Under the pieces are notes generated by a model that saw only the letters and a list, made by a program, of their open reading frames with translations, was not told where the DNA came from and did no database searches. From positions 39,331,816-39,395,815 of the forward strand of contig CP154954.1 in NCBI GenBank assembly GCA_039621445.1: a DNA stretch of 64,000 bases. Direction: 5' to 3'. This stretch comes from Euglena gracilis. Taxonomy: Eukaryota. Shown here piece by piece: positions 8,065 through 48,579 of the stretch; within the stretch, counting starts at the first letter, position 1; each line of letters starts with the position of its first letter. A program made the translations under genes and the position numbers.

Positions 8065-8066
<2 letters not shown>

Positions 8067-8126
<60 letters not shown>

Positions 8127-8128
8127 GC
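8067..8128. repeat. (TG)n microsatellite
   Basis: Directly visible. Confidence 0.97.
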
Positions 8129-13370: not shown

Positions 13371-15252
<1,882 letters not shown>

Positions 15253-19493: not shown

Positions 19494-19805
19494 AGTGTAC
19501 GTCTGATTCCCAATTCCCCTTTCCCAATTCCCAAAAGCCTTCGCTTTCGCCTTGGCGCACCTACTTGGGAACTGAAAATCAGAGTAACAGAAAACCCTTT
19601 TCCCACTTCCCAAGAAGCAAAGCACAGAGCAATGCAGGGAGGATGGACTGGACATCCAAGTCCGGTCTGGAGAAAAGGAAGACAAACAGAATAAAGAATA
19701 CCACCTGTGGAGAGAGAAGGGGCACCCATTAGGAAATCCTAATAGGATCTGCTTCCATCCTAACTTCCTCAACGGAAGGGGACAGAAGCATACGCCTGGT
19801 ACACA
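19494..19805 (-). repeat. 3' LTR of copy B
   Basis: Direct repeat of 35889-36204 (about 8 substitutions and 3 small indels by eye); element-strand ends TGTGTAC...GTACACT. Confidence 0.92.
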
Positions 19806-19815
19806 TCCCCCTCCC
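19806..19815 (-). promoter_or_regulatory. Polypurine tract (PPT)
   Basis: GGGAGGGGGA immediately 5' of the 3' LTR on the element strand. Confidence 0.88.
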
Positions 19816-20294
19816 AGGGCTATGCCCGATTTCCTCTTTGGACCAGGCATTCTGGCCACAGGCCTTTCGGACACAGACCTGGTCTGTTGGAGGTGCACCC
19901 TGGCGCATCCACAGGGGCCCTTTCCGTCGCACAGGGGTCCACTCAAAAAGGGGGGCGGAAAGGAGGGGGACCCAAAAGCCCAAAACGCGCAAAATGGTTT
20001 CACCTACTTTGCGGTGGCTTATGGGTGTATAGTATACTATAGCCCACTGGTGAAAATGGGGCTGGCAGGTTTCCTTGCCAAGCAAACCCATCCACCCAGT
20101 TTGGGTGTGCTAAAGGCACTTGGGGTTGGTCCATGGGCATTCAGGGAATACCCATGGGGAGGGTGTGGAAGGAGGGGGCCTCTGACCAGTCAAACCTGGG
20201 CAGGGCGCATGGCCAGTCAAACCTGACCACGCAAAAGAAAAGTCCTACTCTACAAAACCAACTGCCGGCGACAGCATTTGTCCGGGGGGAAAGT

Positions 20295-23700: not shown

Positions 23701-26241
23701 ACGGGGTCGCCGTAGTCTGGTGGCAGACTTTCCATACCTGGTCCATCGTCCTGGGGGTCACGGAGACGTATATACACCTCCATGACGTAGGTGGTCCAGG
23801 CTCGCCACCAGAACTGCTGCAGCATAAGAATACGCTGCTTGTGGACGCGGCGACTTCTGCCCTGGACATCCGGGGCGTCGCGGCACACATGCATAAGCAT
23901 GCGGCGTCCCATCTCCAGGCCCGGGTTATCCCGAGGCGGTGGAGGGCTTCCACGCACGCCGAATCCCCAGAAGTCGACAGTGAATTCCCTCCTGCCATTT
24001 ATTACAACAGAGGTCATACCTCTGTGGGTAAGCCAGGGAAACGCGCTGAACGCGGAAGGTTGAGCCGTAATGGCTCACCAGCCGCACCTGGAGGTTGTTC
24101 CACCACAACACCTCAATCAGGCGTCCTACTTCGGGGTGCAGTGGGAAGTATCTCCACTGGACTCCGAGGGGTCCTACTGAATGGATACATTCGAAGTAGG
24201 CCTTCAGCATCCGGGCCAACACCTGCTGGTCCCGGAACGCCAGTCCCAACTGGTGCAGATAACTGCGACCAGTGGAGTTGCTGAAGAGACCCCAGTTCTG
24301 GCAGGGGTATCCCAGCCAAAACCATAGCTCCAAAAAGCCCGGCTGGGCATCCAGAAAAGGTCTGCCACCTTCACCTTCGAAGGCGTACAGATCTATTCCG
24401 TAATGGAATAGTCTGACTCTGTTCTCGGTGTGGTGTAATACCACATCGATGACTGTCTCTGGAGGAGTGACGGGGCGGTTTCCTGCAACATGGTAATCAT
24501 GCTGCATTCGCCAGCCTTCGTCTTCCAGCTCCTCCTTGAACCTGAGCATATGCTCAAAGTCCGAGAGGACTTCTGCTGGTTCTTCCTCCTGCTCACGGGC
24601 TGTACCCTTACCCTTGCCCTCACCTTTGCCTTTGCCAGCCACGCCTTTGCCTTCTCCCTTGCCTTTGCCCTCAGCCGTACCTTTGTCCTTCCCCGTCTGG
24701 TAAATACCAGCGGGTCGGGCGCTCGGTGCGGCAGCAGTCGGTTCGGTACCTTCCCATTCCTTCTCTGGGGAGGGGCCTTGCCGTTCCGCTGCACGTCGCG
24801 GTGATGGCGTGGCTGGGCGCTGGCTAGGAGCCTGGCGTGGGCTTGGTTTCGGCGTAGGGGGTCGCAGCTCCTTCCATACCGGAGGGATCGGCGGTGGCAT
24901 GGCGTCAGCAGGACGGCTCATCGCTGCCTGTGCCTCTGCCGGTGGTTGTCTAGCCAGGGTATCCTGGCTGGCTTCCACCTGCATTGCCGAACCGCCTTCC
25001 GCGTCCCTTGGGCTGGGTCGCCTGGGCTGTGGGGTAAGGTCCTCCGTAGCCCTATGGCGCTTCAGGGTGGCAGGTAATCCTGCCGCTCCTGCCGGGGGCT
25101 CACCGGGTAATACCGGGGTTGCCACCCGCAGCTGCGGTTGGTACGGATGGTATGGGGTGTATCCACGGCCCTGAAGGGCAGCCAGCGAAGAATAATACCT
25201 CGCCCGGTGCTCTTCAGACGCGAATACTGGCTCCTGCAGGAAATGCCGAGCAAGTTCATCCTGCTCGGTTCCCGGAGGTGCCATGTGGTAGTAGGGAGCC
25301 TCCTGCCGACGCGGGACATCCCCGGTTTGGACAGGAGGTGCACTGGGCGGTCGGGTTGCCGCACGGTGGAGAGGTTCATCCTCCACCACTATGGGCTCCA
25401 CCTGCCGCCGTGGCTCAACGCCAGGGGCAGGGGCGACCGGTGATGCCTGTGGCATCCGGTGCGTGAACATGTGTTGGACGTATGCCTCAGGGGGCACGTC
25501 CAACTGTCCGGCTGGGAGTACGTGTGCGCCACGTGGGTAGTCCGCGTGCGTCGCGTACTGCGGGGCAAATTGCTCTGCTGGCGGCTCGCGCAGCGGCGTT
25601 CGCTGCGGCGAGGGCGGGCGAGCAAATATTCTCGTCATCCCAGGTGGGACATGCACAGCCTCACCTACCGGTGGGGGCGTGTGCTCACGCATGTGCACGG
25701 TGTGGTATCCCACCGGCGTCTGCGTTTGCAGCATGGGCGGCACATACACGCCCAGGTCCATCCCGGTCTCGCCAGGCTCAAATCCGGAATCGGATGCCGA
25801 CGAGAAATACCGTCTCCCTGTCATCAGGGCCTGACCACAGGGACACCACTGAGCCACAGGGGTGTTGGCTACCACCAACAACTGAGCGCAGTATGCATCC
25901 CAAAGGGCTTGCATAAAGGGCTCCGTTGGAGGGCGTGCGCACATACGCATCGCCCGCTCCAACGTCTCCGTAGTGTGGAAGATCATCTCTCCCGCATACA
26001 GGGGCAGCCGCAATCTGCGCTGCACTGGTGGCTGGGGTGCCGGCTGCTGGACGGCTGATGGATCTGGTACCGCATATGCGGACCGGCTGCTGGTAGCCGC
26101 GGCGAATACCGGGGCTGGACCCCTTTCAGCATGTGGGGCACCCGGAATCGGGACCTCACCATACTCAGGGTACTGGGAGTATGGTGCGCCCGGAGGCTGC
26201 GGCCATGGTGGACCTGGTCCTGGTCCGCGCCCAGGCAGCAT
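20715..26241 (-). pseudogene. Accessory ORF of copy B (~1,840 codons; one frameshift, one in-frame stop); Pro-rich linkers, conserved Trp-rich domain, RING-like Cys cluster
   Basis: ORFs 23926..26241, 22623..24017 and 20715..22589 join: the last two are in frame across a TAG at 22623-22625, and the ~23990 frameshift is continuous in copy A (AYPYRYKLECPFCEEVHTVDFWGFG). Confidence 0.8.
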
Positions 26242-26434
26242 GATGCTCCCCGAACGACGACGACAACGAAGGATAACCTTGTTGTCAGTCGCTTTGAGTG
26301 CTAGGCACTGAAAAAGAAGATGCTTCTATCCTTATCAAAAACTGTGTGAGAAAGACAGAAGATGCAGTGCAGGGGGGGGGTATAAACGCGGAACATTCAC
26401 ATAAAACACACACATTCTCCAAAACGAAATCGTT

Positions 26435-29400
26435 TCAGAAAGTGTTTATGTTTATGTCTATGTTATTGCGCTTGTTCCACAGCTTCCAATCCTGTTGGAC
26501 GTATCCAACAAAACTGGATGCTGGCTCCCAAGTGTCCTCCTCTGGCCCATACCCCTTCCAGCGAACTTTCCAGTAGTGCACACCCCTGTTGACCTTGTGG
26601 TCTATTATCTTATCAACCACAAAGTCGTCCGTTTCAGGTAATCTGGAACGGGGCTTGAAATATAAGCAGGGGATAGCTTTTCCGTCTGGGGGGCTTAGGT
26701 ACGGTTTGAAATCGTCCATATGGACGTCCTCAATCCCGTTGGGCAAGGCAACTTTACATCGCCCGCTACTTCCTAACCTGTTCAAAATTTCGCATGGGAC
26801 GAGCCAAAGAGGATGTAGCTTGGAAGATTGCATGCGGGTGCGGTTATTCCGTACCCACACGCGGTCACCTGGACTATACACAGGTGTGTTGAAATTTTGT
26901 AAAAACGATTTCCGTTTGTTGGAATGAATTTCTGTGATAAGTGATTGAACTGCAGAGCGGATTTGATTCCACTTCTGCAAACCACGTTTCACAGCTAACA
27001 CTACTTCGGGCGGGTCTCTCCGAGGGGATATCCCCTATGGCCGGAGGGTCTCGTCCGAAAAGAATTTTATACGGTGAGTGTGGTAATACCACCCCTGGCA
27101 AGGTATTGATGTAAAATAAACACCAATGAAGAATGGATATCCAATTCTTACCCGAGTCAGCCAGTGAAAGGCGTAGCATATTGACAACAGATTTCACGGC
27201 TGCCTCAGCTCCACCGTTGCCTTTCGGGCGGTATATAATGGACAAATGCTGCTCAATACCGAGTAAACCGCACAAAGTCGTGAAAAACCGCGACGAGATC
27301 AAGTGATCTTGATCACTCACTATTTCGTTCGGTAAACCCATTAAGCAGATACATTTTTTCAGGAATATGGATGCCAAAATTTGGGCTGTCAACCCTGCTT
27401 TCCGGCATGGAATGGCTACTATGTACCCACTCAGCCGACAGACGACAACAAAAACGTAATCGTAAATTTTGTCATCTGATCCTTTGCAAGGTTCGAGTTC
27501 GAGAAAATCCATGCAGAGGGACGTAAAAATGTCCGGTGGTACGGGGAAAGAATCCATCGTACCAGGGGGGGTACCTCTGCGCGGTTTCACAGCCTGACAA
27601 ATTGGGCACCGCTGCGAAATTCGCAAACAGCGCGAATATAAATCTTTTTCACTCAGGGTTGTGCAATATCTGCGACCCACCAGTGAAAGAAGTTTCAGGG
27701 CCCCAGGGTGACCATGGTTGTGATAGCTCAAAATCACATCATCAACCAGGTCTTGGGGTATACAATATTTATAACCAGAAGCATGCCGGAAGATAGGTCG
27801 CAATGGTGATAGAGAGTAATTCTCTATGGACTCACTATTACGGAGTCTATTCACAATGGTACTATATACAAGGTCACGCGAATAATCCCATTCGCGGAAA
27901 AATAGGGGGGTAGGAGTTTCCGTACGCGTAATGCGACGGGGTCCGGCAGTGCGTCCACGCCGGCGCCTTCCACGCAATGGTGAAATGGCAATGCTGCGAT
28001 ACACCCGGGAAACGGGTAGTGAGTCGAGCATGTTGTCCACAGCGTCGGATCGACGTGCGAACTGGTCAGCCCCATGGCTGCCATGAAAAGTCGCATCACC
28101 CTCATCCGGGTTCCCAGGATAATACCAGGGGGCTCGGCTGAGAGGATCCGCCACTTTTTGCGTATGACCTGGGGTATAAAATACCACCAGGTTAAACTGG
28201 CTCAAGAACTCATGCCATCGGCATCGTCTGCCAACTGATGACATGGCCTTGTTCAGGTCCTCGGTATACCAGTGTTGAAGGCTCTCATGATCCGTCAACA
28301 CCAGTATCTGGACCAGGCTGCTGGCTATCCAGCTGCGGAATTTCTGGAGAATAAGCACAATGGCGTATGTCTCCTTTTCGCGAACGCTCCGTTTAACCTG
28401 TCCTTTGCTGTTGTCGCCGTGTAGCTTCCTGCTAAAGAAAGCCAGAGGTCGGAGTTCATTCGCCACATTATGCTGTCTAAGAACCCCGCCAACAGCGTAA
28501 TCGCTGCTGTCGACCTCCAGGACATACGGTTTGTATGGATCCGCGATATCGAGAACCACGTTCTCGAGGAGCAAGTCCTTGATTTTATTCAAGGCCTCGC
28601 GCATTTGGTCATCCCAAATGACTTTTGCGTTATCGGGTGTCCGATTTTTGAGTTGTCGGGTTAGGGGTACCGCGATTTTCGCGAAATCTTAGATGTAAAT
28701 CGCGTAGTATTGGGCTAATCCCAAAAATCCCTTTAAATGCGTTAAGGTCTTAGTGACCTCAGGAGTCCATTTCTTAGTGGCCTCCATCTTGCTGGGTGCG
28801 GCTTGACGCTGCCCGTTGCTCAGGATATGCCCGCAAAACTCAACAATTTTGCGAAACAGGTGCATTTTGGAACCCTTCACAAAAAGCACATTGCTTTTTG
28901 AACGCGGATAATACCGCCCGCACATCGCGATAATGCGGTTCGAGGATATCCTTGCCCGATTTCGCGGATGGCGGTTGGGTTCCCACCAGTACATCATCGA
29001 TGTACACCAGAGCGAACGGTAAATCGCGCAAAACCCACTGGATCATGCGTTGAAACATGGCTGGGCCATTCTTAACACCCATAGGGAGTACCGTCCATTG
29101 GCACACACACCCTTGGATGTCACGAATGCCGTGTACGGTTGTGAATCGGGTGCAAATGCATCTGATGAAAACCGTCTTCTAGATCAAAGATTGACCACAA
29201 CCTGTTATCCGATTGTTTGGTGATCAAATCCTCGATCAGCAGTAACGGGAAGGGGTCATCCTTCGTTTGGGAGTTCAGGTACCGGTAATCCAGCACCAGT
29301 CTCCACTTCTTCTGACCAGACTGGTCAGCGGGTTTGGGCACTACAAAAGCTTGTGATGTCCATTCGCTCTTGGAAGGGATAATCCACTTCCGCTGGATGA

Positions 29401-31565
29401 GCTTCTCAATCATCTCGTTGAGAGCTTGTTCGCGTTTAACCGAACAACGGAAGAATTTCCGGTGCATGGGCTTAGCGCCATCCTTGAGCTCGATTTTGCA
29501 AACACCGAACAGAACGCGAATCGCGGGGTCGATGTCGCAGGCGTAAACTGGGTTATCCAGTACACCATGGAATTCGCGAGTAAAACGCGAACAATAGTCA
29601 GCAGACTTGGGGTGTTGGTCCGCACTCTCAATAACCGCCAGAAATCTGCGTTGAGGGTGTGGCATCCCCATTGGTACCAAGGTATCTTGGCACACGCAAA
29701 TCGGATATACCGAATGTGTCAAAGAAACAAACGCGAAAAATGATTTCTTTAACAGGTGGTAAAAATATACCACAAAAGTCCTCGAATAGTGGTACATCAG
29801 CGGGTAAATCCCACCAATGAAAACAGACATAGGATAGTTGATGAAACCAATGCGCATTCGGATTGACGGGTATGAGGAGAGATCCTCGCGCTTCATCGCG
29901 GAGGATTTTCTCCACCACATCCGGAAGAAGTTTTGGGGGAGGGTTCAACCAAAGCACCGTATCACCCAAAAATTTAAGGAATGCGTTGGAGTGTCGCGAC
30001 CAATGTCGCGAAAAGCGTGCATGCGCTTGTGATGAAAACGCATCAATTTCCAACGACAAATCGAAGGAATCAGCCAAAGCCGCGATTTTGGAGAACCATT
30101 CCTCCAAAATACGGTATTGACCAAAATTAAATGCGTTCCATACGCGTATCGCGTATGTATCGACCTGGTTTGCGGGTTGAAGAGCGGTAACGCAATTCAG
30201 GGAACCGCAAACATAGGCCAAGGGTGTGTCATCCACACTCCCAAGGGGCATTCCCAAGGAATGATGGGTTGGATGGGTGCATACCCAGGCCATAACATGC
30301 CAGATGGAGGTGGTGGAGGTGTGTGACACGGATTTCGCGGTCCCAAACAACAAGGCAATACCTCGTTGTTGTAGCACTTGATGCACGGTCGCTCATTCCA
30401 ATCCGCAACCAAGTGTGTGGTTACGCGAAATCGGGATTAGTGTTGGTGTTTGGACTAGACATCCACAATCGAAATCTGGATGGGCGTCAATTCTCCTACA
30501 GTGCACACATTGGAAGGAAGTTTCGGAGTAGTGGTCCTGGTCGCGCATGTTGGTCTGGTGGGGGTGTGTGTGAAAGTTGGAATGCGCGTTTGTAGCTGCT
30601 GGGGGGTGTACAGATGTATCTGAAAGCGATACATCTGGTGGAAAACGGGGTATTGGTGCAGCTGGGCGACTACTCGACACCGTAATTACTTCAGGCCTTT
30701 GGGCTTTCGTCTTGTAACCCAGTGGAACGAGGGGTACCGCTACTTGCTTGCCCTGCCTCGTGGGGAACGGAAGTTGGTGTGTGGATGGGCAGGGGGTGAA
30801 CTCTCTCGGTACACCCGGTGTAGAAAACGTTGGTAGGTGTGGTTGGTAACGGGGTAAAAGTTTTCGAAAACTGTGTGCAAAAATTGGTGGCTGTCGTGGT
30901 TGACGCCACGGGTGATGAGGGTTTGGGGGGCAATGAAGAGAACGGTGATGTGCGGAAACCGTGGAGGGGCAATACACTACCAGCCGGTGCTGACGTAAAA
31001 AGGGGCATCCCAGAATTACGTCAGACCCATGCATTCCGGATTCTTATCCCCAGGTATCCGGAAAATTTTGCGGTTGTGGGGGGTGTGAGTGGTGCTTGGG
31101 GATGAGGGGTAGGACTAAGTCCAAAATGCATCACAAGTCACCACCGCACATGGGGGTGTTGTCAGCCGTCGTTACTTTGATCGGCTTCTTGGCTTTCACC
31201 AAGAGGGTGGTCGGTATCAACCCGAACCCAAAAAGTAGTGCAATGCGGCAACCAGTGTCAATGAGAATTTTGACTTTTGCACAAAAATTTTTGGGTTTTG
31301 ATTTCCGCTTGGACCATAAGTTCCATGGGGGGTAAGCAAAGTGAAGGGTCTGGCGAAAATACGTTTTCTTGCCAGCTTTCCCATGAACCCTTTCCTACTT
31401 TGCACAAAAATTCCGAGCGGAAAGTTGTTGTGGGGGGTGGGGGACCCGAAAATTTTCCGCGTACCGACCAGGAAGGCAGATGGGCAGGGGGGGGCAGGGT
31501 TGATCAGGTCCTACCTCCATCTGTTCATCAGCCCAGAGGTCCGTGCCCTCCGACCTCGGGCTCCC
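26435..31565 (-). pseudogene. pol: pol of copy B: protease, Dam-like MTase, RT, RNase H, integrase, chromodomain (disrupted)
   Basis: LIDTG (~31260) and DVILGCPFL; WRLVLDYRYLN; YIDD; VDSSDYAVGGVL, EKETYAIV, TDHESL, VADPLSR; YHNHGH..CPIC; MDF/SDQD/AE; chromodomain. Confidence 0.94.
29715..30125 (-). other. Dam-like DNA N6-adenine methyltransferase domain within pol (between protease and RT)
   Basis: QYRILEEWF..EIDAFSSQAHARF..NAF....DTVLWLNPPP..VVEKILRD..LLIP....HWF follows the DAF/NA/NAF/WxNPP/LxxP..W pattern of DIRS-type and phage Dam MTases. Confidence 0.75.
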
Positions 31566-34500
31566 CTACTCCAGGTCCGAACCGGCCGAATAGCCGGCTA
31601 TGGGCCTTTTAGAGGTAAAAACGGATTTCAACGTGCGCACCGCCATGCGGGCGTCGTCAAAATCGGTATCCGTGGTCTCATCCCCCTCCCTGCCCGAAGC
31701 CGGGGTGTCATCCTCCAAACAAGATACCTTGAAACCGACTTTATGGCGGTTGGAGGAGTGACCCTTGTCACCGCGATTCATACCGCGATGACGTTGGCCA
31801 GAGCGGGGAGAACGAGAACGCGGACATTTGGATGAGTGGTGACCACTCGATCCACAAAGCGAACACCGAGATTTGTGTCGCGAATATGGATAACGGGGGG
31901 ATCGGTTTCCCGATTTCCCGTCAAACCGTCGTGGTGACCGGGTATCCCGTCGACCATGACCGGTGTATCGGGGTTTTCCCAATCAGGATCGCGAAGAGGA
32001 TGATCCGCTTCGTGAACGCGATCGCGATGTCTCGCGATAAGGATCACGCTTCTTGGCAGGGGCACCGGGTGACCTACCCCGAGGGGTACCGTGTTTCCGC
32101 TCATCGCGGAACGGGATCCGGGGGCTAATACCACCGGAACGGGGACCCGATGACCGTGAATTACCCGATTGGCGTGAAAACGCGGAGGAATCCAAACCCC
32201 GTGATGAGGTCGAGCCTCGCGGACTCTGACCACGCTTTTGTGCTTCAGGGTTAGGACATTCCCGAGACATATGCCCCGATTTGTTGCACAAAAAGCACAC
32301 TTTATCCGTGGCTTGGTCCGAAGAACGCGGGTATCGCGTTTTCGATACCGTGTTTGGTGAAGTGGGTGAAACCGGTGATTTTTGCAATGCGTTCACCGAA
32401 CCAGCCGGTAATCCCGCGGTTGGGCGTACGGTATACGCGGATTGAATCTGACCAAGGAGCTGTGATAGCTTCAACTGCTTGGAAACGTAATTCCAGCGTT
32501 GGTCAAGAGTCATGGGATGACTCGCCAACTCCTCACGGTGGATATCCTTGAGGAGGCTAGGCGTGAATGCATGAGAACAGCGTCAAACTGTTCGCGCATT
32601 TGCTTTTCACTAAGTTCATCAACTTCAACAGCAAGACCTAACCATTTGGCATACCAATGGTCAATGCACTTCCACTTGCGATCTGGTGGGGCGCATTGCC
32701 GATACTTGGTCTCTAGGGTAATCCTAGCGACCAAACTTGAACTGGTGGAAGCGTATTGCTCCACCAGGTCATCAAAGGAAACGCGATAGCGAATGACGAG
32801 TTGTCGCGCGCGCTCCTTCTCATCCCTTGGCAGGCAATCGTTGAATTCCATCGTGAGCACCTCCGGGTTTGTGTCCTGGGTTGCCCCTTCAATGCCCAGT
32901 AATACTCCCAGTCCCGGAAAAACTGTCTCAATGTGGTTGGATCACCGTCCCACTGGGGTTTCACCTTGTTCGCGATTGCGACGGTGCCTTTGAAGTCTTT
33001 CTGAGAAACCCAATGACCCTCGGTGGTATTCCGTGGAATCGGGCCCGGGTACGCTCGAGCACCAAGCGTATCCTTTCCGGATTCTTGTCGGAATAGCGAA
33101 ATTTCTGGTGAAGGTGAATCCTGGTACCGGAAATCCGTTCCCAAACCCTGTTGGTCACCCGTAATAGGGGGACACTCCGGTGTGGGGGTATGTCGCGCAT
33201 GCAACATGTGACCCACTCCCGGTGTACAGGTTTGGCTCATTCCACGCACAAGCATGGAATGATGGATTTCTTGGTGGAGACTTGGCGGAATCGCCGTGTT
33301 TTCCGAAAATTCGGTTCCCTTAAAATTCATCCGAAAACTGGTTTTGGGTTTTGGGCAAGGCCAATGGTGGCACAATTCGCGGAATCGCGGGTTGTGACAC
33401 AGTCGGGACACGGGTGGTGGTGGTGCATGTGCACCTAGATTCGGGTTGTGAAAACGCGAATCTGGAACATTTGGCGAATCTTCGGCAATGCATACTGCCG
33501 AATTTCGGTGTGAAACCCGCTGTTGGTTGGACACATTGTCCAGACCCACAGACAAGTCATGCACAGCTTTGCTCCAAATGCTCAACGAGTTGCAGTTGGC
33601 CGCAAATACGGTCAACCTCATCCTCCAAAGCGCGAATACGCTTGCGGTAACGGGAAAAGTCATCCAAGTGCGGAATCCTTTCGGAAATTCCGGTGACATC
33701 TTGGACAAGTTTCCCGTGAGACTCATCCAGTAATTGGAGTTGTCCCGTTAATGCTTTTACAGCTTTTGAGAGAATCTGCAAAGGTGGTGTCACCTCGGTT
33801 GGTGTGGTAGTGGGTACAACCGGTGCAGGGTCATCCGACAACGTGTTGTGGTACCCACGGGCAAATTTCCGGGTTGTGGCTTATCCAAAAACGCAAATTC
33901 GCTCGTCCAACCTGGTAATCTCACCATGCGTGGATCGGGCATTCCGATTCACCGATTCTTCAAGCCGTAATAGGCTGTTGCAAAAATCTTGCAAGGTTTC
34001 CTGATTGTCGGTGAGCATTTTGTCATAAAATGCCTTGAAATTAGGTTTCTAGTTCTTGGTAATCCGTGAACTGGAATCTGCTGGCAAAGACTGCATTTCC
34101 GTTAATTTGGTAGACACCGATGCATACCGGGTCTGGAGTTCCCCAATAGCTGTCTGAATACCGCTAATGTCCGGAACTCGGTGGGAAAGTGCGGAATAGC
34201 TTTGTTGCAAACCCGCAATGGCCGAGTTAATCCCGCCAACGTCGGACTGCAACTGCAACTGCAGGGATTCCTGCCGTTGTTCCATTTCCGCGACTTTCGC
34301 GCTCAGATTGGATAATCCAACCTGATTCGCGTCACAATAGCAGGTTTTCTGCTCAAAACGGGAAAGTCACTCCTCCAACTGCCGCACATACGTGTGGGGA
34401 GCAAAATTCTCGTTGGCTTGTGACTGGAATAGCCGAAAATTTACCGTTTCATCGCACAACAGCATAATGCGGTGTTGCGATTCATGGAAAGTTGCGGATA

Positions 34501-35542
34501 GGGTGGTGAAATGGTCCATAGACACAAATCCACCAGTACTGGATGTTGCAGACGAGGAATCTCGTGCATGCAACTGTTGTTGCAAATGCAACAACGCGGA
34601 TGAACAGGACTCCATTTGTCCCGATAGGTGTTGTAGTGAGTCATGCAAGTGCAGAAACTTGGAGTCATTCCGCGTTTCCGCTTCATGCATGCATTCACTA
34701 ATTTGCCGGAAGTTCTGCGGGAGTTGTTGGCACATTCTGTCAAAGGTTTCCCGAAAGTTTGCAAGGTCAATACCCGCACTTTCAAAATTCCTCTGGCAAT
34801 ATTTGCCAACTTCCTGCAAGTAATTCCAGCAGTGTTCCAGCTTGGTGAAGACATGTTTCTGGCTGTCCTCATCAAACTGAAGCACTTTGTTCAGTGCGGT
34901 TGCACATTCTGCAACGCATTGTTGCACATGGTTGAACTGCCTCACAAGTGGGTGATCCCCTGGAAGCCGAGCAACGATATCCTGCACATCCTCAGCAGTG
35001 AGGAGCTCACCAGTGCCCTTCCCTTAGCCATCCATGGGTTGGGATGTACCGGAGAATTCCGGTACCACTAGACGAGTCTCCACTTGCCAAGGCAGTGCCG
35101 GATAGCACCCAAGATCGGGTGGTGGTGGCAAAGCTCTGTAAGGGTTTGCCGGTGGAAGAGCGGGTGGGGGTTGAAAGAAACACGGTGATTCTAGTCCACC
35201 ATCACCAGAGAAGCCCGGTGGCGGAATCACCACAGGTCTCTCTGGTGTATGCAGCTGCACCATTGCCGCAAACAGAGGCGAATACCCCCGTTGTGGCAAG
35301 GTGAGTGCGGAAGAGGCCGCATTGGCCTCTGAAGCCAATAATGTGGAGGGCTCATCGCCGACCACTGTCAATGATGACAATTGTTGCAGTCTTGACAATT
35401 GAGCCAATTTTGCCTCATCGGCGTGGGAACTGGAAGCACTTTCACATAAAAGCTTCCAAACCCCTGTTTCTTGGTCAATGTCTTGCAATGATGCCTGTAA
35501 TAAGGCATAGTTGAATTGATGGCTGGGGCCTGTGCTTTGCAT
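31566..35542 (-). pseudogene. gag: gag-like ORF of copy B (coiled coil, capsid-like region, two CCHC zinc knuckles, RS-rich)
   Basis: CFLCNKSGHMSREC and CSLCGSSGHHSSKC; PQWDGDPTT..FFRDW; lies between the PBS and the protease; several frameshifts and stops. Confidence 0.85.
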
Positions 35543-35731
35543 CTTTCTGATGGCAAAAACAACAAAAACCCACAAAACTAAGCAGTTGTGCTGGCACCAG
35601 AGGGGCTGTAACGGGTAATACCGTACAGAGCCTTCCGGAGCCTGCTCGTCTGCTTAGACGTTGACTAGAAGCCGGGAGCTGACGCTGCGACCGTGTAATA
35701 ACGGTGCAGGGGCCCTCCGCTGCCAGTCAGC

Positions 35732-35888
35732 GTAGGATCGAACCAATCTGCTACCAAGTGTAAAACCTGGAAGCTTTTCTTTCTGTGAAGTATGTGTAGG
35801 ATCGTAATCAAATCTGCTACCAACTGTAAAACCTGGTAGCTTTTCTTTCTGTGAAGTATGTGTAGGATCGTAACCAAATCTGCTACCA
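35732..35888 (-). promoter_or_regulatory. Three tandem primer-binding sites (tRNA-iMet-like), 66-bp period
   Basis: TGGTAGCAGA at 35879-35888 (abutting the LTR), 35813-35822 and 35747-35756, each followed by a GGTT(A)CGATCC-like sequence. Confidence 0.85.
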
Positions 35889-36204
35889 AGTGTACGTCTG
35901 ATTCCCCAATTCCCCTTTCCCAATTCCCAAAAGCCTTCGCTTTCGCCTTGGCGCACCTACTTGGGAACTGAAAATGAGAGTAACAGAAAACCCTTTTCCC
36001 ACTTCCCAAGAAGCAAAGCACAGAGCATTACAGGGAGGACGGACTGGATATCCAAGTCCGGTCCGGAGAAAAGGAAGACAAACAGAATAAAGAATACCAC
36101 CTGTGGAGAGAGAAGGGGGGCACCCATTAGGAAATCCTAATAGGATCCGCTTCCATCCTAACTTCCTCAACGGGAAGGGGACAGAAGCGTACGCCTGGTA
36201 CACA
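35889..36204 (-). repeat. 5' LTR of copy B
   Basis: Direct repeat of 19494-19805, followed immediately by the PBS on the element strand. Confidence 0.92.
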
Positions 36205-38560
36205 CCAGCAGCCATTTGCTTGCCTCGGCCGCACCAGCAGCCATTTGCTTGCTTCGGCCGCACTAGAAGCCATTTGCTTGCTTTGGCCGCGCCAGCAGCC
36301 ATTTGCTTGCTTCGGCCGCACTAGCAGCCGTTTGCTTGCTTCGGCCTCACCGGCCATGTGCTTGCTTCGGCCACACCAGCGGCCATTTGCTTGCTTCAGC
36401 CGCCCCAGCAGCCATTTGCCTGCTTCGGACTGGCCACTTTCTTGCTTTGGTGTGCTTGCAACCATTTGCTTACTTCAGACCGGCCATTTGCATGCTTCGG
36501 CCGCGCCAGCAGGCATCTGCTTGCTTCGGCCGCACCGGCAGCCATTGGCTTGCTTCGGCCGCACTAGCAGCCATTGGCTTGCTTCGGCCGCAGTAGCAGC
36601 CATTTGCTTGCTTCGGCCGCAGTAGAAGCCATTTGCTTGCTTCGGCCACACTTACAGCCATTTGCTTGCTTCAGCAACACCAGCAGCTACTAGCTTTCTT
36701 CGGCAACACCGGCCATTTGCTAGCTTCGGCCGCCTAGCAGCCATTTGCTCGCTTCTGCAACGCTAGCAGCCATTTCCTTGCTTCGGCCACACTAGCAGCC
36801 ATTTGGTTGCTTCGTCCACACCCGCCATTAGCTTGGTTCGGCCGCACCAGCTGCCATTTGCTTGCCTTGGACCGACAATTTGCTTGCAGCCATTTGCTTG
36901 CTTCCATCACACCAGCAACCATTTGCTTGCTCCGGACCGGACATTTGCTTGCTTTGGTGCGCTTGCAGCCATTTGCTTGCTTCGGCTAAACTAGCAACCA
37001 TTTGCTTGTTTCGGCTGCACTAGCAACCATTTGCTTGCCTCGGCCGCACTAGCGGCCATTTTCTTGCATCGGCCGCCGTAGCAGCCACTTTTTTTTTGCT
37101 TGCTTCGGCCATTTTTGCTTGCTTTGGCCGTAATAGCAGCCATTTGCTTGCTTCGGCCGCACTAGCAACCATTTGCTTGCTTCGGCTACACCGGCAATTT
37201 GCTTGCTTCGGCCGCGCCAGCAGCCATTTGCCTGGCCACTTTCTTGCTTTGGTGTGCAACCATTTGCTTATTTCAGACCGGCCATTTGCTTGCCTCGGCC
37301 ACACCGGCCATTTGCTTGCTTCGGCCGCACCAGCAGCCCTTTAGTTGCTTCGGCCGCGCCAGCAGCCATTTGCTTGCTTCGGCCGCGCCAGCGGCCATTT
37401 GCTTGCTTCAGCCGCACTAGCAGCCATTGGCTTGCTTCAGCCGCCCCAGCAGCCATTTGCATGCTTCGGACTGGCCACTTTCTTGCTTTGGTGTGCTTGC
37501 AACCATTTGCTTACTTCAGACCGGCCATTTGCTTGCTTCGGCCGCGCCATCAGGCATCTGCTTGCTTCGGCCGCACTAGCAGCCATTGGCTTGCTTCGGC
37601 CGCACCAGCAGCCATTTGCTTGCTTCGGCCACACCAGCAGTCATTTGTTTGCTTCAACCGCACTCGCAGCCATAGCCAATAGCTTGCTTCGGCCGCACCA
37701 GCATTTGCTTTTTTATCACACAGGCCATTTGCTTGCTTCGGCCGCACTAGCGGCCATTTGTTTGCTTTGGCCCCGCCCGTAGCCATTTGCTTGCTTCGGC
37801 TGTGGCAGCAGCCATTTGATTGCTTCGGCCGCACTATCGGCCATTAGATTGCTTCGGCCGCACTAGCAGCCATTTGCTTGCTTCGACCACACCGGTCATT
37901 TGCTTGCTCCGGCCGCTCTAGCGGACATATGCGCGCTTCGGCAACGCTATCAGCCATCTTGCTTGCTTCGGCCGCACCAGCAGCCATTTGCTTGCTTTGG
38001 TGTGCTTACTAGCTTGTACTTGATTGAGAGTGGCCACTTGCTTGCTTCGGCCACCGTATTAGCCATTTTCTTGCTTCGTCCACACCGGCAATTTGGTTGC
38101 TTCGGCAGCACCGGCAGCCATTTGCTTGCTTCGGCCGCACTATCAGCCATTTGCTTGCTTCGGCCGCAGTAGCAGCCATTTGCTTGCGTCGGCCACACTT
38201 ACAGCCATTTGCTTGCTTCAGCAACACCAGCAGCTACTAGCTTTCTTCGGCAACTCCGGCCATTTTCTAGCTTCGGCCGCCTAGCAGCCATTTCCTTGCT
38301 TCGGCCACACTAGCAGCCATTCGCTTGCTTCGTCCAAACCCGCCATTAGCTTGGTTCGGCCGCACCAGCAGCCATTTGCTTGCTTTGGACCGACAATTTG
38401 CTTGCAGCCATTTGCTTGCTTCCATCACACCGGCAACCATTTGCTTGCTCCGGACCGGACATTTGCTTGCTTTGGTGCGCTTGCAGCCATTTGCTTGCTT
38501 CGGCTAAACTAGCAACCATTTGCTTGCTTCGGCCACACGGCCATTTTCTTGCTTCGGTCG
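36205..38560. repeat. 29-bp satellite, right part
   Basis: Same unit and orientation as 18700-19493, with higher-order duplications. Confidence 0.93.
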
Positions 38561-40123
38561 TTGCGTCATTGCGGGAAAAAAAAACATCAAGCCGGACTAA
38601 AACTTCGGGAAATGCCAATTGAACGTCAATGACAAACTTAGGAGAAAACAAACAACAAAAAACCAAAAATGTGGCAAAACCACCACCAAAGGGGACGCCC
38701 GGCAGACTGCTGCGGCAACGCTGGCCACCTTCTCCGCTGCGGCACGGCAGAAGGGGAAGGTCTGGTGGGCGGGGGTCGCCCCCCCCCAACCAATTTTGGG
38801 AAAACGGAAATTTTGGCCGGGGAAAACTGTTGAAATGCATGCTTTTTAGGTGAAGACAACAATTTTTCACAAAAATACTGGAAAAACATGGTTCAGAAAC
38901 TGGTACTTTTTGGAAAGGGGTTGAAAGAAACGAAAGACAAAAAAAAGTGAAGAAAAGCTTGGCACAATCAAATTTCACTGAGATTTATTCTCTTAAAAAA
39001 AATTTGGGATCCAGATATTGGTGCTCCTTGAAGTACAAGAAGGCGGCGGAGGGGGGGAGGAACCATCCACCGACCACCCTGGCTGTTTTGGCCGATTCCG
39101 GTTCTGCCCTACGCCGCCCTGCCGGCCCCCCGCGTCGATGCGGTGGCGGCGGCGGTGGAAGGGGGGGGAGGGTGTGGGCCGCCGGCGACGCGGGGACGTC
39201 CTCGCCCTGCACACCACCAAAGGAGTGACGGGGGGCACTGGTTCTCTGGGACGCAATGGCAAAAATGCCCTCCCGCCCGCCTGGTGCGAAACGCAAAATT
39301 ACTGAACATATGTTTCTTTTTGCCCCAGAAACAACGGGCAAATTGTGGGACGGGGATTGCCTCAATGCCAAGAACTTGGGGGGGGAGTGCCAAAATGTTG
39401 GACCAGCTGACCCCCCCAAACCCCATTAGCACAGGGTTCAACGGGCCACAAAAATGAAATCTTGGTAATTTTTTCTGTGTTAATCAGGGTGGGGGCGTGA
39501 TGGTCGTGGCCAGATTGCCCCAATGCCAAGAACTGGGGGGTGCCAAAAAAAAGGTGCCCAGCCCCCGGGCCCCGGTCGGCTGGGTTCCCCACCACCATAA
39601 CCGCTATTTTTGCCGGAACCGTTTGAACAAATGCCCCAAGGGCAATTGGGGGGGGGGGTCAATTGGGGGCAAACAGAAAAATGGCAATCGGTGAACTGGA
39701 TGAAATACTGGATCATTTTCAAGTGTGAGATTGAGGCAAATTTTCCAGGAAATGAACAGAAAAGATGTGGGTATTGGAAATTCGATCGAAGGGTGCAGAG
39801 GGGGTTGAGGTGTGCTCTTGCCCAAGGATGAGAGGTTAGCGAACATCCTCCACAGGGTTTTCCTTTTCCAGTTATCCCTCAGGGGAACGGCATCAAAAGC
39901 TTTATGACACATTTCACAAGATTTTGGTTCCCGACCAGGCTTTTGCTTAAGGACCCCCCGGGGGGGGTACCGGCTAGCCAATCGACAATACACTGGAAAA
40001 AGTGGACTAGCTAGACCCGCTCCCCCCGAGGGGGGGGGGTCCGGGGGTCCCCCGGACTGGAAAAATGAGGTTTTTAACAGGTTTTTGGCTGACTTTGTTC
40101 CACAAATTCCCATTCAAAAAATG

Positions 40124-42911
40124 CCGCAGTTGGAGGAGCGACTTTCCCGTTTGGAGGAGAAAACCTGCTATTATGACGCGAATCAGGTTGGATTATCCAA
40201 TCTGAGCGCGAAAGTCGCAAAAATGGCACAACGGCAGGAATCCCTGCAGTTGCAGTTGCAGTCCGACGTTGGCGGGATTAACTCGGCCATTGCGGGTTTG
40301 CAACAAAGCTATTCCGCAATTTCCCACCGAGTCCCGGACAAAGCGGTATTCAGACTGCTATTGGGGAACTCCAGACCCGGTATGCATCGGTGTCTACCAA
40401 AATTATGGAAATGCAGTCTTTGCCTGCAGGTTCCATTTCACGGATTACCGAGAACCCTGATTTCAAGGCATTTTATGACAAAATGCTCACTGACAATCAG
40501 GAAACTTTGCAAGATTTCTGCAACAGCCTATTACGGCTTGAGGAATCGGTGAATCGGAATGCCCGATCCACGCAAGGTGAGATTACCAGGTTGGATGAGC
40601 GAATTTACGCGTTTCTGGATAAGCCACAACCCGGAAATTTGCCTGTGGGTAGCACAACCCCGGTATCGGATAACCCTACACCGGTTGCACCCACTACCAC
40701 ACCATCCAAGGTAACACCACCTTTGCAGATTCTCTCAACAGCTGTAAAAGCATTAACGGGACAACTCCAACTATTGGATGAGTCTCACGGGAAACTTGTC
40801 CAAGATGTCACCGGAATTTCCGAAAGGATTCTGCACACAGATGATTTTTCCTGTGACCGCAAGCGTATTCGCGCTTTGGAGGATGAGGTTGACCGTATTT
40901 GCGGCCAACTCCAGCTCGTTGAGCATTTGGAGCAAAGTGGGCATCACATGTGTGTCGCGTTGGATAATGTGTCCAACCAACAGCGGGTTCCACATCGTGA
41001 TTCGACAGTATGCATTTCCGAAGACGCGCCGAATGTTCCAGAGTCGCGCCACACCCACACCCCGACTCCAGGTGCACATGCACCACCACCACCCGTGTCC
41101 CACGTGTCACAATCCGCGATTCCGCGAATTGTGCCACCATTGGCCTTGCCCACAACCCAAACCTAGTTTTCGGATGAACATCCCATTACGGGAACCGAAT
41201 TTTCGGAAAAAACGGCGATTCCGCCAAGTCTCCACCAAGAAATACATCATTCCATGCTTGTGCGTGGGATGAGCCAAACCCGTACACCGGGAGTGGGTCA
41301 CATGTTGTATGCGCGACATACCCCCACACCGGAGTGTCCCCCTATTACGGGTTACCAACAGGGTTTGCGACCGGATATCCGGTACCAGGATTCACCTTCA
41401 CCAGAAATTTCGCGATTCCGACAAGAATCCGGACAGGATACGCTTGGTGCTCGAGCGTACCCAGGCCCAAAACCGCGGAATACCACCGAGGGTCGTTGGG
41501 TTTCTCAGAAAGACTTCAAAGGCACCATCGCAATCGCGAACAAGGTGAAACCCCAATGGGATGGTGATCCAACCACATGGAGACAGTTTTTTCCGGGACT
41601 GGGTGTACTACTGGGCATTGAAGGGGCCAACCCAGGACCCAAACCCGGAGGTGATCAAGATGGAATTCATCGATTGCCTCCCAAGGGTTGAGAAGGAGCG
41701 CGCGCGACAACTCGTCATTCGCTACCGCGTTTCCTTTGATGACGTTGTAGAGCAATACGCTTCCACCAGCTCAAGTTTGGTCGCTAGGATCACCCTAGAG
41801 ACCAAGTGGCGGCAATGCGCCCCACCCGATCGCAAGTGGAAGTCCATTGACCTTTGGTATACCAAATGGTTAGGACTTGGCAAATGCACGAACAGTTTGA
41901 CGCTGTTCTCATGCATTTCACGCCTAGCCTCCTCAAGGATATCCATATCCTTGAACGCTGGATATCCATATCCACCAACGCTGGAATTACGTTTCCAAGC
42001 AGTTGAAGCTAACACAGCTTCTTGGTCACATTCAATCCGCGTATACCGTACACCCAACCGCGGGATTACCGGCTGGTTCAGTGAACGCATTGCAAAAATC
42101 ACCGGTTTCACCCACTTCACCAAACACGGTATCGAAAACGTGATACCCGCGTTCTTCGGACCAAGCCACGGATAAAGTGTGCTTTCTGTGCAACAAATCG
42201 GGGCATATGTCTCAGGAATGTCCTAACCCTGAAGCACAAAAGCGTGGTCAGAGTCCGCGAGGCTCGACCTCATCACGGGGTTTGAATTCCTCCGCGTTTT
42301 CACGCCAATCGGGCAATTCACGGTCATCGGGTCCCCGTTCCGGTGGTATTAGCCCCCGGATCCCGTTCCGCGATGAGCGGAAACACGGTACCCCTCGGGG
42401 CAGGTCACCCGGTGCCCCTGCCAAGAAGCGTGATTCTTATCGCGAGACATCGCGATCGCGTTCGCGAAGCGGATCATCCTCTTCGCGATCCTCATTGGGA
42501 AAACCCCGATACACCGGTCATGGTCGACGGGATACCCGGTCACCACGACGGTTTGACGGGAAATCGGGAAACCGATCCCCCCCCGTTCCAGATTCGCGAC
42601 ACAAATCTCAGTGTTCGCTTTGTGGATCGAGTGGTCACCACTCATCCAAGTGTCCGCGTTCTCGTTCTCCCCGCCCTAGCCAACGTCATCGCGGTATGAA
42701 TCGCGGTGACAAGGGTCATTCCTCCAACCGCCATAAAGTCGGTTTCAAGATATCTTGTTTGGAGGATGACACCCCGGCTTCGGGCAGGGAGGGGGATGAG
42801 ACCACGGATACCGATTTCGACGAGGCCCGCATGGCGGTGCACACGTTGAAATCCGTTTACACCTCTAAAAGGCCCGTAGCCGGCTATTCGGCCGGTCCGG
42901 ACCAGGAGTAG
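40124..42911 (+). pseudogene. gag: gag of copy C (partial)
   Basis: Same two CCHC knuckles (ORF 42177..42911); ends at TAG 42909-42911. Confidence 0.85.
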
Positions 42912-45900
42912 GGGAGTCCGAGGTCCGAGGGCACAAACCTGTGGGCTGATGAACAGATGGAGGTAGGACCTGATCAACCCTGCCCCCCCGGGTACCGACC
43001 TTACTGGTCGGTACCCGGAAAATTTTCGGGTCCCCCACCCCCCACTCCAACTTTCCGCTCGGAATGTTGTGCAAAGTCGGAAAGGGTTCACGGGAAAGCT
43101 GGCAAGAAAACGTATTTTCGCCAGAACCTTCACTTTGCTTACCCCCCATGGAACTTTTGGCCCAAGCGGAAATCAGAAGCCAAAATTTTTGTGCAAAAGT
43201 CAAAATTCTCATTGACACTGGTTGTCGCATTGCACTACTTTTTCGGTACGGGTTGATACCAACACCCCCCCTTGGTGAAAGCCAAGAAGCGGATCAAAAT
43301 TACAACGGCTGACAACACCCCCATGTGCGATGGTGACTTGGGATGCATTTTGGACTTAGTCCTACCCCTCATCCCCAAGCACCACTCACACCCCCCCAAC
43401 CACAAAATTTTCCGGATACCTGGGGATAAGAATCCGGAATGCATGGGTCTGACGTAATTCTGGGATGCCCCTTTTTACGTCAGCACCGGCTGGTAGTGGA
43501 TTGCCACTCCAACGGTTTCCCCCCCCCCCACCACCCCCCCCCCCAACCCCCCCCCCCCCCTCATCACCTGTGGCGTCAACCACGACAGCCACCAATTTTT
43601 CCACACCGTTTTCGAAAACTTTTTCCCCCGTTACCAACCACACCTACCAACGTTTTCCACACCGGGTGTACCGAGAAAGTTCACCCCCTGCACACTGACA
43701 CACCAACTTCCGTTCCCCATGAGGCAGGGCAAGCAAGTAGCGGTAGCCCTCGTTCCACTGGGTTACAAGACGAAATCCCAAAGGCCTAAAGTGATCACGG
43801 TGTCGAGTAGTCGCCCAGGTGCACCAATACCCCGTTTTCTGCCAGATGTATCGCTTTCAGATACACCTGTACGCCCCCCAGCAGCTACACAAGCGCAACC
43901 CAACTTTTACACACAACCCCACCAGACCAACATGCGCGACCAGGACCACTACTCCGACACTTCCTACCAATGTGTGCACTGTAGGAGAATTTCCGCCCAG
44001 CGAGATTTCGATTGTGGATGTTTAGTCCAAACATCAACACTAATCCCGATTTCGCGAACCCATACACTTGGTTGCGGATCGCAATGCGCGACCGAACATC
44101 AAGTGCTGCAACAACGAGGTATTGCCTTGTTGTTTGGGACCGCGAAATCCGTGTCGCACACCTCCCCCACCTCCATCTGGCATGTTATGGACTGGGTATG
44201 CACCCATCCAACCCATCATTCCTTGGGAATGCCCCTTAGGAGTGTGGATGACACACCCTTGGCCTATGTTTGCGGATCCCTGAATTGCATTACCGCTCTT
44301 CAACCCGCGAACCAGGTTGACACACACGCGATGCGCGTATGGAACGCATTCAATTTTGGTCAATACCGTATTCTGGAGGAATGTTTCTCCAAAATCGCGG
44401 TTTTGGCCGATTCCTTCGCTTTATTGTTGAAAATTTATGCGTTTTTATCACAAGCGCACGCGCGCTTGTCGCGATATTGGTCGCGACACTTCAACGCATT
44501 TCTTAAGTTTTGGGATGATACGGTGCTTTGGTTGAACCCTCCCCCTACACTTTTTCCGGATGTGGTGGGAAAATGCTCCGCGATGAAACGCGAGGAGCTC
44601 TCCTCACACCCGCCAATCCGAATGCGCATTGGTTTCACCAATTCTCCTATGTATGTTTTCATTGGTGGGATTTACCCGCTGATGTACCACTATTCGAGGA
44701 TTTTTGTGGTATATTATTACCACCTGTTAAAGAAATCATTTTTGGCGTTTGTTTCTTCGACGCATTCGGAATATCCGATTTGCGTGTGCCAAGATACCTT
44801 GGTACCAGTAGGGATGCCACACCCTCAACGCAGATTTCTGCGGTTATTGAGAGTGCGGACCAACACCCCAAGTCTGCTGACTATTGTTCGCGAATTACTC
44901 GCGAATTCCATGGTGTACTGGATAACCCAGTTTACGCCTGCGACATCGACCCCGCGATTCGCGGTCCGTTCGGTGTTTGCAAAATCGAGCTCAAGGATGG
45001 CGCTGAGCCCATGCACCGGAAATTCTTCCGTTGTTCGGTTAAACGCGAACAAGCTCTCAACGAGATGATTGAGAAGCTCATCCAGCGGAAGTGGATTATC
45101 CCTTCCAAGAGCGAATGGACATCACAAGCTTTTGTGGTGCCCAAACCCACTGACCAGTCTGGTCAGAAGAAGTGCAGGCTGGTGCTGGATTACCGGTACC
45201 TGAACTCCCAAACGAAGGATGACCTCTTCCCGTTACTGCTGATCGAGGATTTGATCACCAAACAATCGGATAACCGGTTGTGGTCAATCTTTGATGTAGA
45301 AGACGGTTTTCATCAGATGCACTTGCACCCTTACTCACAACCGTACACGGCATTCGTGACATCCAAGGGTGTGTACCAATGGACGGTACTCCCCATGGGT
45401 GTTAAGAATGGCCCAGCCATGTTTCGACGCATGATCCAGTGGGTTTTTTCGCGAATTACCGTTTGCTCTGGTGTACATCGATGATGTACTGGTGGGAACC
45501 CCACCGCCATCCGCGAAATCGGGCAAGGATATCCTCGATCCGCATTATCGCGATGTGCGGGCGGTATTATCCGCGTTCAAAAAGCACGTGCTTTTTGTCA
45601 AGGGTTCCAAAATGCACCTGTTTCGCAAAATTATTAAGTTTTGCGGGCATATCCTGAGCAACGGGCAGCGTAAAGCTGCACCCAGCAAGATGGAGGCCAC
45701 TAAGAAATGGACTCCTGAGGTCATTCAGACCTTAACGCATTTAAAGGGATTTTTGGGATTAGCCCAATACTACGCGATTTACATGACAGATTTCGCGAAA
45801 ATTGTGGTACCCCTAACCCGACAACTTAACAATCGGACACCCGATAACGCAAAAGTCATTTGGGATGACCAAATGCGCGAGGCCTTGAATAAAATCAAGG

Positions 45901-48044: not shown

Positions 48045-48579
48045 AACGATTTCGTTTTGGAGAATGTGTGTGTTTTATGTGAATGTTACGCGTTTATACC
48101 CCCCGGGGCAAATGCAGTCGCCGGCAGTTGGTTTTGTAGAGTAAAACTTTCCTGTTGCGTGGTCAGATTTGACTGGCCAAGCGCCCTGCCCAAATTTGAC
48201 TGGTCAGCGGCCCCCTCCTTCCAAACCCTCCCCATGGGTTTTCCTGGAACGCCCATGGACCCAACCCCAAGTGCCTCTGGCACACCCAAACTGGGTGGAT
48301 GGGTTTGCCTGGCAACGAAACCTGCCAGCCCCATTTTCCCCAGTGGGCTATAATATACTATACACCCATAAGCCACCGCAGAATAGGTGAAACCATTTTG
48401 CGCGTTTTGGGCTTTTGGGTCACCTTCCCCCCCCCCTTTTGAGTGGACCCCTGTGCGACAGAAAGGGCCCCTGTGGATGCGATAGGGTGCACCTCCAGCA
48501 GACCAGGTCCGTTTCCGAAATCCCTGTGGCCAGAATGCCTGGTCCAAAGGGGAATTCGGGCATAGCCCTTGGAGGGAGA

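Follow-up and report, generated by a model that had tools for sequence, protein, structure and literature searches.

A retained, probably impaired methyltransferase-fold domain in dead copies of an abundant chromovirus from Euglena gracilis

We analyzed a 64-kb stretch of Euglena gracilis DNA (64,000 nucleotides; GenBank assembly GCA_039621445.1, contig CP154954.1, forward-strand positions 39,331,816 to 39,395,815), referred to here as the window. It contains three copies, A, B and C, of one Ty3/Gypsy retrotransposon family, and two of them carry a Dam-like domain between the protease and the reverse transcriptase (RT). On balance we favor reading these as dead copies of an abundant chromovirus of the DAM-LTR type (LTR, long terminal repeat), which has retained a methyltransferase-fold module that is probably impaired. 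That a DAM-family domain resides in a chromovirus pol is a conclusion we hold with high confidence; that the domain is catalytically impaired we favor by a narrow measure.

A Dam-like domain precedes the reverse transcriptase

In copy B, the domain occupies about 155 residues of a 254-residue protein encoded by the minus-strand open reading frame (ORF) 29628-30392 (coordinates of the features are given in Table 1). The motifs YRILEEWF, EIDAFSS..HARF, NAF, LWLNPPP, KILRD and LLIPVNPNAHWF follow each other along this ORF. Copy C shows the same series over two frames, in ORFs 43497-45068 and 44519-45484. A sequence-only reading of the window had described this series between the DTG protease and the RT of both copies. 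Our analysis confirms it in both, the span noted at that time (29715-30125) corresponding to residues 90-226 of the copy B ORF, and likewise confirms that both copies read NPPP at motif IV.

Copy B contains Pfam matches to RVT_1, RT_RNaseH_2, Integrase_H2C2, rve, SH3_Tf2-1, Chromo and a gag CCHC zinc knuckle, and is therefore a chromovirus. The chromodomain follows rve and SH3 and sits at the integrase C-terminus. The 87-residue ORF with the copy B protease motif has no match in the Pfam scan. The pol order in the window is domain, RVT_1, RNase H, H2C2 and rve on one strand, interrupted by stops and frame changes. The placement in a chromodomain-bearing Ty3/Gypsy pol, also proposed from the letters alone, thus holds (Chromo E 1e-10), and the database protein P0153 has the same order.

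The arms formed by B and C are complementary at 92-97% overall and at 92-94% across the Dam-like domain. Copy A is without the domain because a CA microsatellite, at about 8168, truncates it inside RT. Copies B and C are both dead elements. In copy B, the frame is interrupted by stops at 31131, 31044 and 30393, and there is an extra base at 29638, the point where the frames of the domain and the RT diverge. This base is not present in copy C, in which one base is deleted in domain codon 161 and the motif-I Asp is changed to Tyr. The core codons of B and C differ by 14 synonymous and 25 non-synonymous changes, which are too few for a selection test and are confounded by decay.

A cysteine motif with the consensus C-x2-C-x-R-(I/V)-x3-Q-x-(D/N)-(F/Y)-D-C-G-C is found in the otherwise poorly conserved linker between the protease and the domain. 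It is present upstream of the domain in seven of the 15 relatives checked (P0002, P0004, P0005, P0006, P0008, P0011 and P0153), and it could bind zinc.

Family membership

Pfam reports no family at E≤0.1 for the copy B ORF. The search against PF05869 that the sequence-only reading had proposed therefore gives no direct match (E>0.1); the match is obtained through profile relatives. A word-indexed protein search returned a single relative of near-equal length, P0001, which is a garbled copy, and a single longer one, P0002, an uninterrupted protein of 1208 residues with 52% identity across 98% of the copy B ORF. The ORF and the matching part of P0002 were combined in an alignment (A2), whose profile was run against 1.84 billion representative proteins. 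It matched 498 proteins at E≤1e-3, of which 97 reached E≤1e-10 and 12 reached E≤1e-30, and the matches align to the domain part.

A second alignment (A3) contains 150 sequences, the window ORF and 149 profile matches. PF05869 Dam is matched by 107 of them, with a best E of 2.1e-18, and the Pfam family PCIF1_WW by three, with a best E of 2.3e-5. The nearest relatives score 16.8-26.6 bits against PF05869, under its gathering score of 28.1 bits (E 5.4e-6 to 5.7e-3; 5.4e-6 for P0003 and 7.8e-4 for P0002). The family consensus reads DAFAS ... DAF ... LW-NPPF ... VV-KI ... P-W-WF. Within the window, the copy B ORF also matches the Dam-positive ORF 56302-56763 (BLASTP E 1e-11). Scanning metagenome contigs with A2 gave 171 pattern matches, none of which was confirmed, and the ESM Atlas returned unnamed eukaryotic clusters and one with PF05869 on 11% of its members, a lead only. 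These comparisons establish divergent homology between the domain and the retroelement DAM or 'MT' (methyltransferase) family, itself related to the phage PF05869 Dam proteins.

Predicted fold of the domain

The AlphaFold2 model built on the 150-row A3 has a block-mean pLDDT (predicted local distance difference test) of 92-98 over residues 81-230, with 146 residues at or above 90. The model from a two-row alignment had a mean pLDDT of 29.9 and was unusable. In a library of predicted viral structures, phage DNA N-6-adenine-methyltransferases rank first (E 1.5e-9 to 7.8e-6), and 16 matches have E≤1e-3. Giant-virus proteins named WW-domain or PCIF1 WW-domain come next, at E 6e-5 or weaker.

Foldseek found no match at E≤0.001 in the PDB, the best being PCIF1/CAPAM (E 1.1e-3), followed by KsgA/DIMT1 and DOT1L. 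VIA-align, run on 48,161 solved chains, also places PCIF1/CAPAM first (Z 10.8; root mean square deviation (rmsd) 3.1 over 132 residues). Further down are a putative RNA methyltransferase (Z 10.3), METTL5 (9.1), KsgA (8.9), T4 Dam (8.3), M.BseCI (8.1), EcoDam (7.9) and M.TaqI (7.9). The VIA-align list consists mostly of class-I methyltransferase folds, and the fold matches cover residues 80-233. The A3 profile has no match at E≤1 among the sequences of solved structures, and no solved PF05869 member surfaced by sequence; the first rank of PCIF1 may reflect this gap. As modeled, the domain is a class-I (Rossmann-like) S-adenosylmethionine (SAM) methyltransferase fold, nearest to N6-adenine enzymes. 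The relatives and the fold matches together bear out the earlier assignment to Dam-family Rossmann-fold methyltransferases, with matches in both profile and structure.

Position and conservation in pol of the relatives

In P0002, Dam (residues 312-383) and RVT_1 (549-720) are followed by RNase H and an integrase zinc finger, all in one frame. P0153 (1677 residues) presents the architecture of the window in a single open frame: Dam 459-529, RVT_1 712-882, then RNase H, H2C2, rve, SH3 and Chromo 1616-1651. Dam lies about 190-250 residues ahead of RVT_1 in P0006, P0018, P0020, P0029 and P0092, and weak matches to protease families precede the domain in P0004 and P0018. At the level of sequence, these relatives show that the domain is passed on within the pol reading frame. 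Two further database proteins, P0117 and P0123, are of the Copia type (RVT_2) and have a DAM domain between integrase and RT.

The core of the domain (residues 80-228) is identical between copy B and P0002 at 110 of 149 positions (73.8%), compared with 25 of 79 in the linker before the core (31.6%) and 5 of 24 in the tail (20.8%). As judged from this alignment, the domain is much better conserved than the linkers on both sides.

Motif IV is degenerate across the clade

We calculated a tree of the domain with FastTree from 153 core columns, using 73 sequences that cover at least 105 columns, and rooted it at the midpoint. The window domain falls in a clade of 15 tips (support 0.889) together with P0002-P0013, P0152 and P0153. 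Twenty core positions are invariant in this clade. One of them is the motif-I Asp (D117), which is kept in copy B and occurs in 95% of the sequences outside the clade.

The canonical form of motif IV, [ND]PP[FYW], is found in none of the 15 clade members, against 28 of 58 sequences outside the clade. The clade has NPPI (4), NPPV (3), HPMF (2) and one each of NPPL, NPPP, HPPL, HPPF, NPHY and YPPI. HPPL is the motif of P0002, and the garbled copy P0001 reads HPPP. Across the 150 rows of A3, NPPF occurs 51 times, NPPY 7 times and NPPW 4 times.

Abundance and variants in sequencing runs

Part of the stretch was found in 20 of the 24 sequencing runs listed, and contigs were aligned for four of them (X1, X15, X16 and X17). 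In the DNA run X1, 21,657 contigs fall on a 2.5-kb stretch (28900-31400), and the family is therefore very abundant in that organism. At position 29945, another letter dominates in all four runs (324,796 of 326,566 depth units in X1). On the coding strand, the codon is AAC (Asn) in copy B and CAC (His) with this majority letter. Copies B and C thus represent a minority variant, and most copies read HPPP.

Copy B departs from the majority letter at many places. Its extra base at 29638 is absent from the single spanning contig in each of X15, X16 and X17; in X1, 18 contigs lack it (11,804 of 52,747 depth units). The runs X15, X16 and X17 are labeled as RNA, a label that does not imply transcription, and contain contigs across the domain of 981 nt (29420-30397) and 903 nt (29752-30654). 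Runs labeled as two further organisms, and one leaf-litter metatranscriptome, also contain near-identical contigs (about 95% alike).

Possible functions of the domain

In our reading, pol of this element is arranged as protease, Cys-motif linker, Dam-like domain, RT, RNase H, DDE integrase and chromodomain. Motif IV (N/D-P-P-F/Y/W) appears to have lost its aromatic residue in this clade, and in many cases the Asn is also gone. In characterized N6-adenine methyltransferases, this aromatic residue stacks on the flipped target adenine. Its loss would therefore most likely leave a poor or inactive adenine methyltransferase. The domain is probably retained for a role that does not require efficient catalysis: it may hold the element RNA or the RNA:DNA intermediate, bind SAM, or serve a structural purpose on the N-terminal side of RT. 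This reading draws on the sequence and on a cofactor-free model of the fold. The sequence-only reading had suggested a writer of N6-methyladenine (6mA) and added, as a caveat, that the domain could be dead or repurposed. The motif IV counts, the His majority in all four runs and HPPL in P0002 make the caveat the stronger reading and leave the writer role unsupported.

Several observations weigh against an impaired DAM-family domain. Membership in the family rests on the relatives and the fold, because the window ORF itself has no direct Pfam match. The tree excludes 81 of 154 rows for short coverage, and the motif counts mix live and dead sequences, because many database proteins derive from decayed copies. 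Asn-Pro-Pro is retained in B, C and eight other clade members, so residual or altered activity is possible. An enzyme that is still active but has an unusual pocket would likewise be compatible with a core this strongly conserved. If the clade resembles the DAM-LTR elements of a recent preprint (10.64898/2026.05.21.726589), the excess of 6mA that its accessible text reports on DAM-LTR copies would favor a catalytic or recruiting role.

An active writer is also the model proposed in the accessible text of that preprint. The domain would methylate the element cDNA, the RNA:DNA intermediate or DNA near insertion sites, and the mark would be transcriptionally permissive for new copies. This is consistent with a Dam-family homologue of methyltransferase fold whose core is strongly conserved, with Asn-Pro-Pro in B and C and the motif-I Asp in B, and with the higher number of 6mA-methylated DAM-LTR copies, relative to other LTRs, that the preprint gives for three species. 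We nevertheless consider it unlikely, since no clade member has a canonical motif IV and most genomic copies have His in place of Asn, as does P0002; moreover, the related DIRS1 domains are judged inactive in the accessible part of Iyer et al. 2016 (PMC4738411). The same source, by Iyer, Zhang and Aravind, proposes a PCIF1-like RNA role for the DIRS1 domain, which it places in the PCIF1 clade. The window domain could by analogy act on the capped transcript of the element, only bind it, or mimic cellular PCIF1. The first rank of PCIF1/CAPAM among solved structures and the three relatives matching PCIF1_WW point in this direction. The resemblance to phage Dam is much stronger, however, both in the number of relatives (107 of 150) and in the viral library (E 1.5e-9 vs 6e-5 or weaker). 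Pfam detects no WW domain in the window ORF, and none of the solved chains has a sequence match at E≤1. We regard a PCIF1-like module as quite improbable.

A DIRS fragment nested by chance in a Gypsy copy, or a chance run of motifs, would be easiest to accept if only the window were considered: both copies are broken, and B and C alone amount to one observation because they are near-identical copies of one family. The domain nevertheless occupies the same in-frame place in the intact P0002 and P0153, with a core identity of 74% against about 20-32% in the linkers. Seven Gypsy-type proteins have Dam ahead of RVT_1, and all 15 clade members agree at 20 core positions. An accidental origin can hence be given hardly any weight. 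A bolder version of the impaired-domain reading is that the window represents an old, separate chromovirus lineage, mostly missed by the screen of the preprint, in which a Dam-derived domain between protease and RT, accompanied by a Cys motif, became a pseudo-enzyme that lacks the adenine-stacking residue in all members but is under strong purifying selection, with a new non-catalytic job in retrotransposition (for instance, to read or hold nucleic acid or SAM) and thousands of copies in the host. We offer this tentatively and consider it rather doubtful.

A second DAM-domain ORF in the window

The window contains a second, different DAM-domain ORF at 56302-56763. Its motifs are QEAFAS, DNAF, IWANPPW and LIAPEWRTTTWW, with the canonical NPPW at 56587-56598, and its nearest match is P0139 (45% identity). 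It is flanked by direct repeats (55000-55230 and 57199-57429), and the neighboring ORFs gave no match to an RT or recombinase family. With a degenerate and a canonical (NPPW) DAM domain, the window offers a natural comparison pair.

Other features of the window

Repeats beside the copies, at 19509-20289, 35905-36118 and 48100-48682, are putative LTR remnants. Arrays of a 29-nt tandem repeat (18919-19527 and 36127-38538) adjoin these putative remnants. The integrase-chromodomain end of copy A is duplicated on the minus strand (647-1665 and 5051-8168) at 98% identity, flanking proline-rich ORFs, and the flank of the copy A microsatellite has a second copy at 13540-13786.

A proline-rich ORF, 799 residues long in B, begins about 100 nt past the chromodomain in B (23926-26325) and A (2233-4945), both on the minus strand. 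The two have the stretch LWFWLGYPCQN in common. The ORF has no Pfam match, and nothing similar is found at the corresponding place in copy C. Possibly it belongs to the element as an accessory gene, or it was inserted separately. Coiled-coil-like ORFs without clear family lie upstream of gag in B (34049-35023, minus strand) and C (39908-41166, plus strand) and may be the first ORF of these elements; similar-looking ones occur toward the right end of the window (60966-63120, plus strand). Just past copy C, ORF 49911-50600 on the plus strand has a weak RVT_1 match (E 0.0029) and probably represents a piece of a different retroelement. Neither the Rfam nor the tRNA scan of the window gave a match.

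Table 1 Features of the retrotransposon copies and of the second DAM-domain ORF, in window coordinates.
Feature	Position	Strand	Details
Copy A	about 647-8168	minus	76-83% like B and C
Copy B	about 26375-35900	minus	
Copy C	about 40000-48100	plus	
Copy B gag CCHC zinc knuckle	32250..32300	minus	Pfam zf-CCHC E 5.8e-6, ORF 31983-32582
Copy B protease DTG, within KILIDTGC	31251..31259	minus	87-residue ORF
Copy C protease DTG, within KILIDTGC	43214..43222	plus	
Copy B Cys motif	30459..30509	minus	CVHCRRIDAHPDFDCGC; linker between protease and domain
Copy C Cys motif	43971..44021	plus	CVHCRRISAQRDFDCGC; linker between protease and domain
Copy B Dam-like methyltransferase-fold domain	29697..30161	minus	Residues 78-232 of ORF 29628-30392
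Copy C Dam-like domain	44319..44782	plus	Aligned to B residues 78-232
Copy B EIDAFSS	30030..30050	minus	D-A-F-(A/S)-S motif, end of the first strand of the fold
Copy B motif IV NPPP	29934..29945	minus	AAC CCT CCC CCA
Copy C motif IV NPPP	44535..44546	plus	
Copy B reverse transcriptase, in two frames	28906..29338	minus	Pfam RVT_1 E 3.5e-5 (ORF 29120-29944) and E 3.3e-10 (ORF 28840-29178)
Copy B RNase H-like, H2C2 and rve	27225..28616	minus	ORF 26874-28688; RT_RNaseH_2 E 6e-23, Integrase_H2C2 E 2.1e-7, rve E 8.1e-8
Copy B integrase SH3-like and C-terminal chromodomain	26513..26869	minus	ORF 26435-27034; Chromo E 1e-10, SH3_Tf2-1 E 3.8e-4
Second, different DAM-domain ORF	56302-56763	minus	153 residues; PF05869 E 1.6e-11, 44.6 bits vs cut-off 28.1

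Relation to known systems

The sequence-only reading had regarded this methyltransferase family as atypical of DDE-integrase chromoviruses. This view is overtaken by the preprint of Fernandez-Moreno et al. (bioRxiv, May 2026; 10.64898/2026.05.21.726589), whose accessible text reports DAM domains in Ty3/Gypsy LTR elements, including chromodomain-bearing ones. According to this text, 10,030 eukaryotic DAM proteins are reported, the screen used hmmsearch at E<1e-5, and the authors claim the first report of DAM domains in non-DIRS LTR elements ("DAM-LTR"). They define five DAM-LTR lineages, attribute 30.9% of all DAM-bearing transposable elements to chromodomain-containing LTRs and call the NPP-aromatic pocket well conserved. 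They find no gain of 6mA in E. coli; in three species, DAM-LTR copies carry more 6mA than other LTRs do. In our own literature search, no other paper describes this domain in Gypsy-type elements.

The window family shares with DAM-LTR, as far as the preprint text describes it, a pol of Ty3/Gypsy type whose polyprotein contains both the DDE integrase and a DIRS-type DAM domain, a chromodomain at the integrase C-terminus and a predicted fold with a central β-sheet flanked by helices; that text gives no domain position for chromovirus-type elements. Unlike the DAM-LTR proteins collected there, the window ORF (E>0.1) and most of its clade would, by our Pfam scans, not reach the E 1e-5 cut-off, which only P0003 (5.4e-6) would pass, E itself depending on search size. 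The well-conserved pocket stated in the preprint text likewise contrasts with the 0 of 15 in the clade of the window.

DIRS1-like elements have the order RT, RNase H, MT, with MT listed as of unknown function in the accessible text of PMC3266345. In the accessible part of PMC4738411, the DIRS1 MT is of Group-2 type within the PCIF1 clade and likely inactive. The DIRS1 and window domains belong to the same family, with the consensus DAFAS ... DAF ... LW-NPPF ... VP-W-WF across the matches. The window domain is located before RT, in contrast to its place after RNase H in DIRS1, and the window element encodes a DDE integrase (rve) as well as a chromodomain. Neither a tyrosine recombinase nor a phage-integrase family was found among the window ORFs scanned or the 150 relatives. 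Phage PF05869 Dam proteins are the closest predicted structures (e.g. rmsd 2.4 over 157 columns) and have the same motif order, D-x-F/A-A-S, D-A/G-F/L and NPP after the fourth strand. They differ from the window ORF, which is without a direct Pfam match, has Pro and not Tyr/Phe as the fourth motif residue and is part of a polyprotein from a eukaryotic retrotransposon. PCIF1/CAPAM, the best solved-structure match, is a cap-specific mRNA adenosine N6-methyltransferase of Group-2 type according to the accessible text of PMC4738411. Unlike the window domain, it is encoded by a cellular single-copy gene, and the window domain has neither a sequence match to it at E≤1 nor a WW domain.

How mobile elements adapt to host epigenomes is illustrated by retrotransposons that encode chromatin or DNA-modification modules of their own. 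The architecture described here is not new; because the class is already present in the preprint, the window adds a further family of the DAM-LTR type described in 2026, not a discovery. Surveys based on PF05869 undercount such elements, because most of the clade falls short of the usual hidden Markov model (HMM) thresholds. Among the known systems, its one distinctive feature, as read from the alignments, is the clade-wide degenerate catalytic motif, and a fold conserved without the catalytic aromatic residue bears on whether retroelement DAM domains methylate at all.

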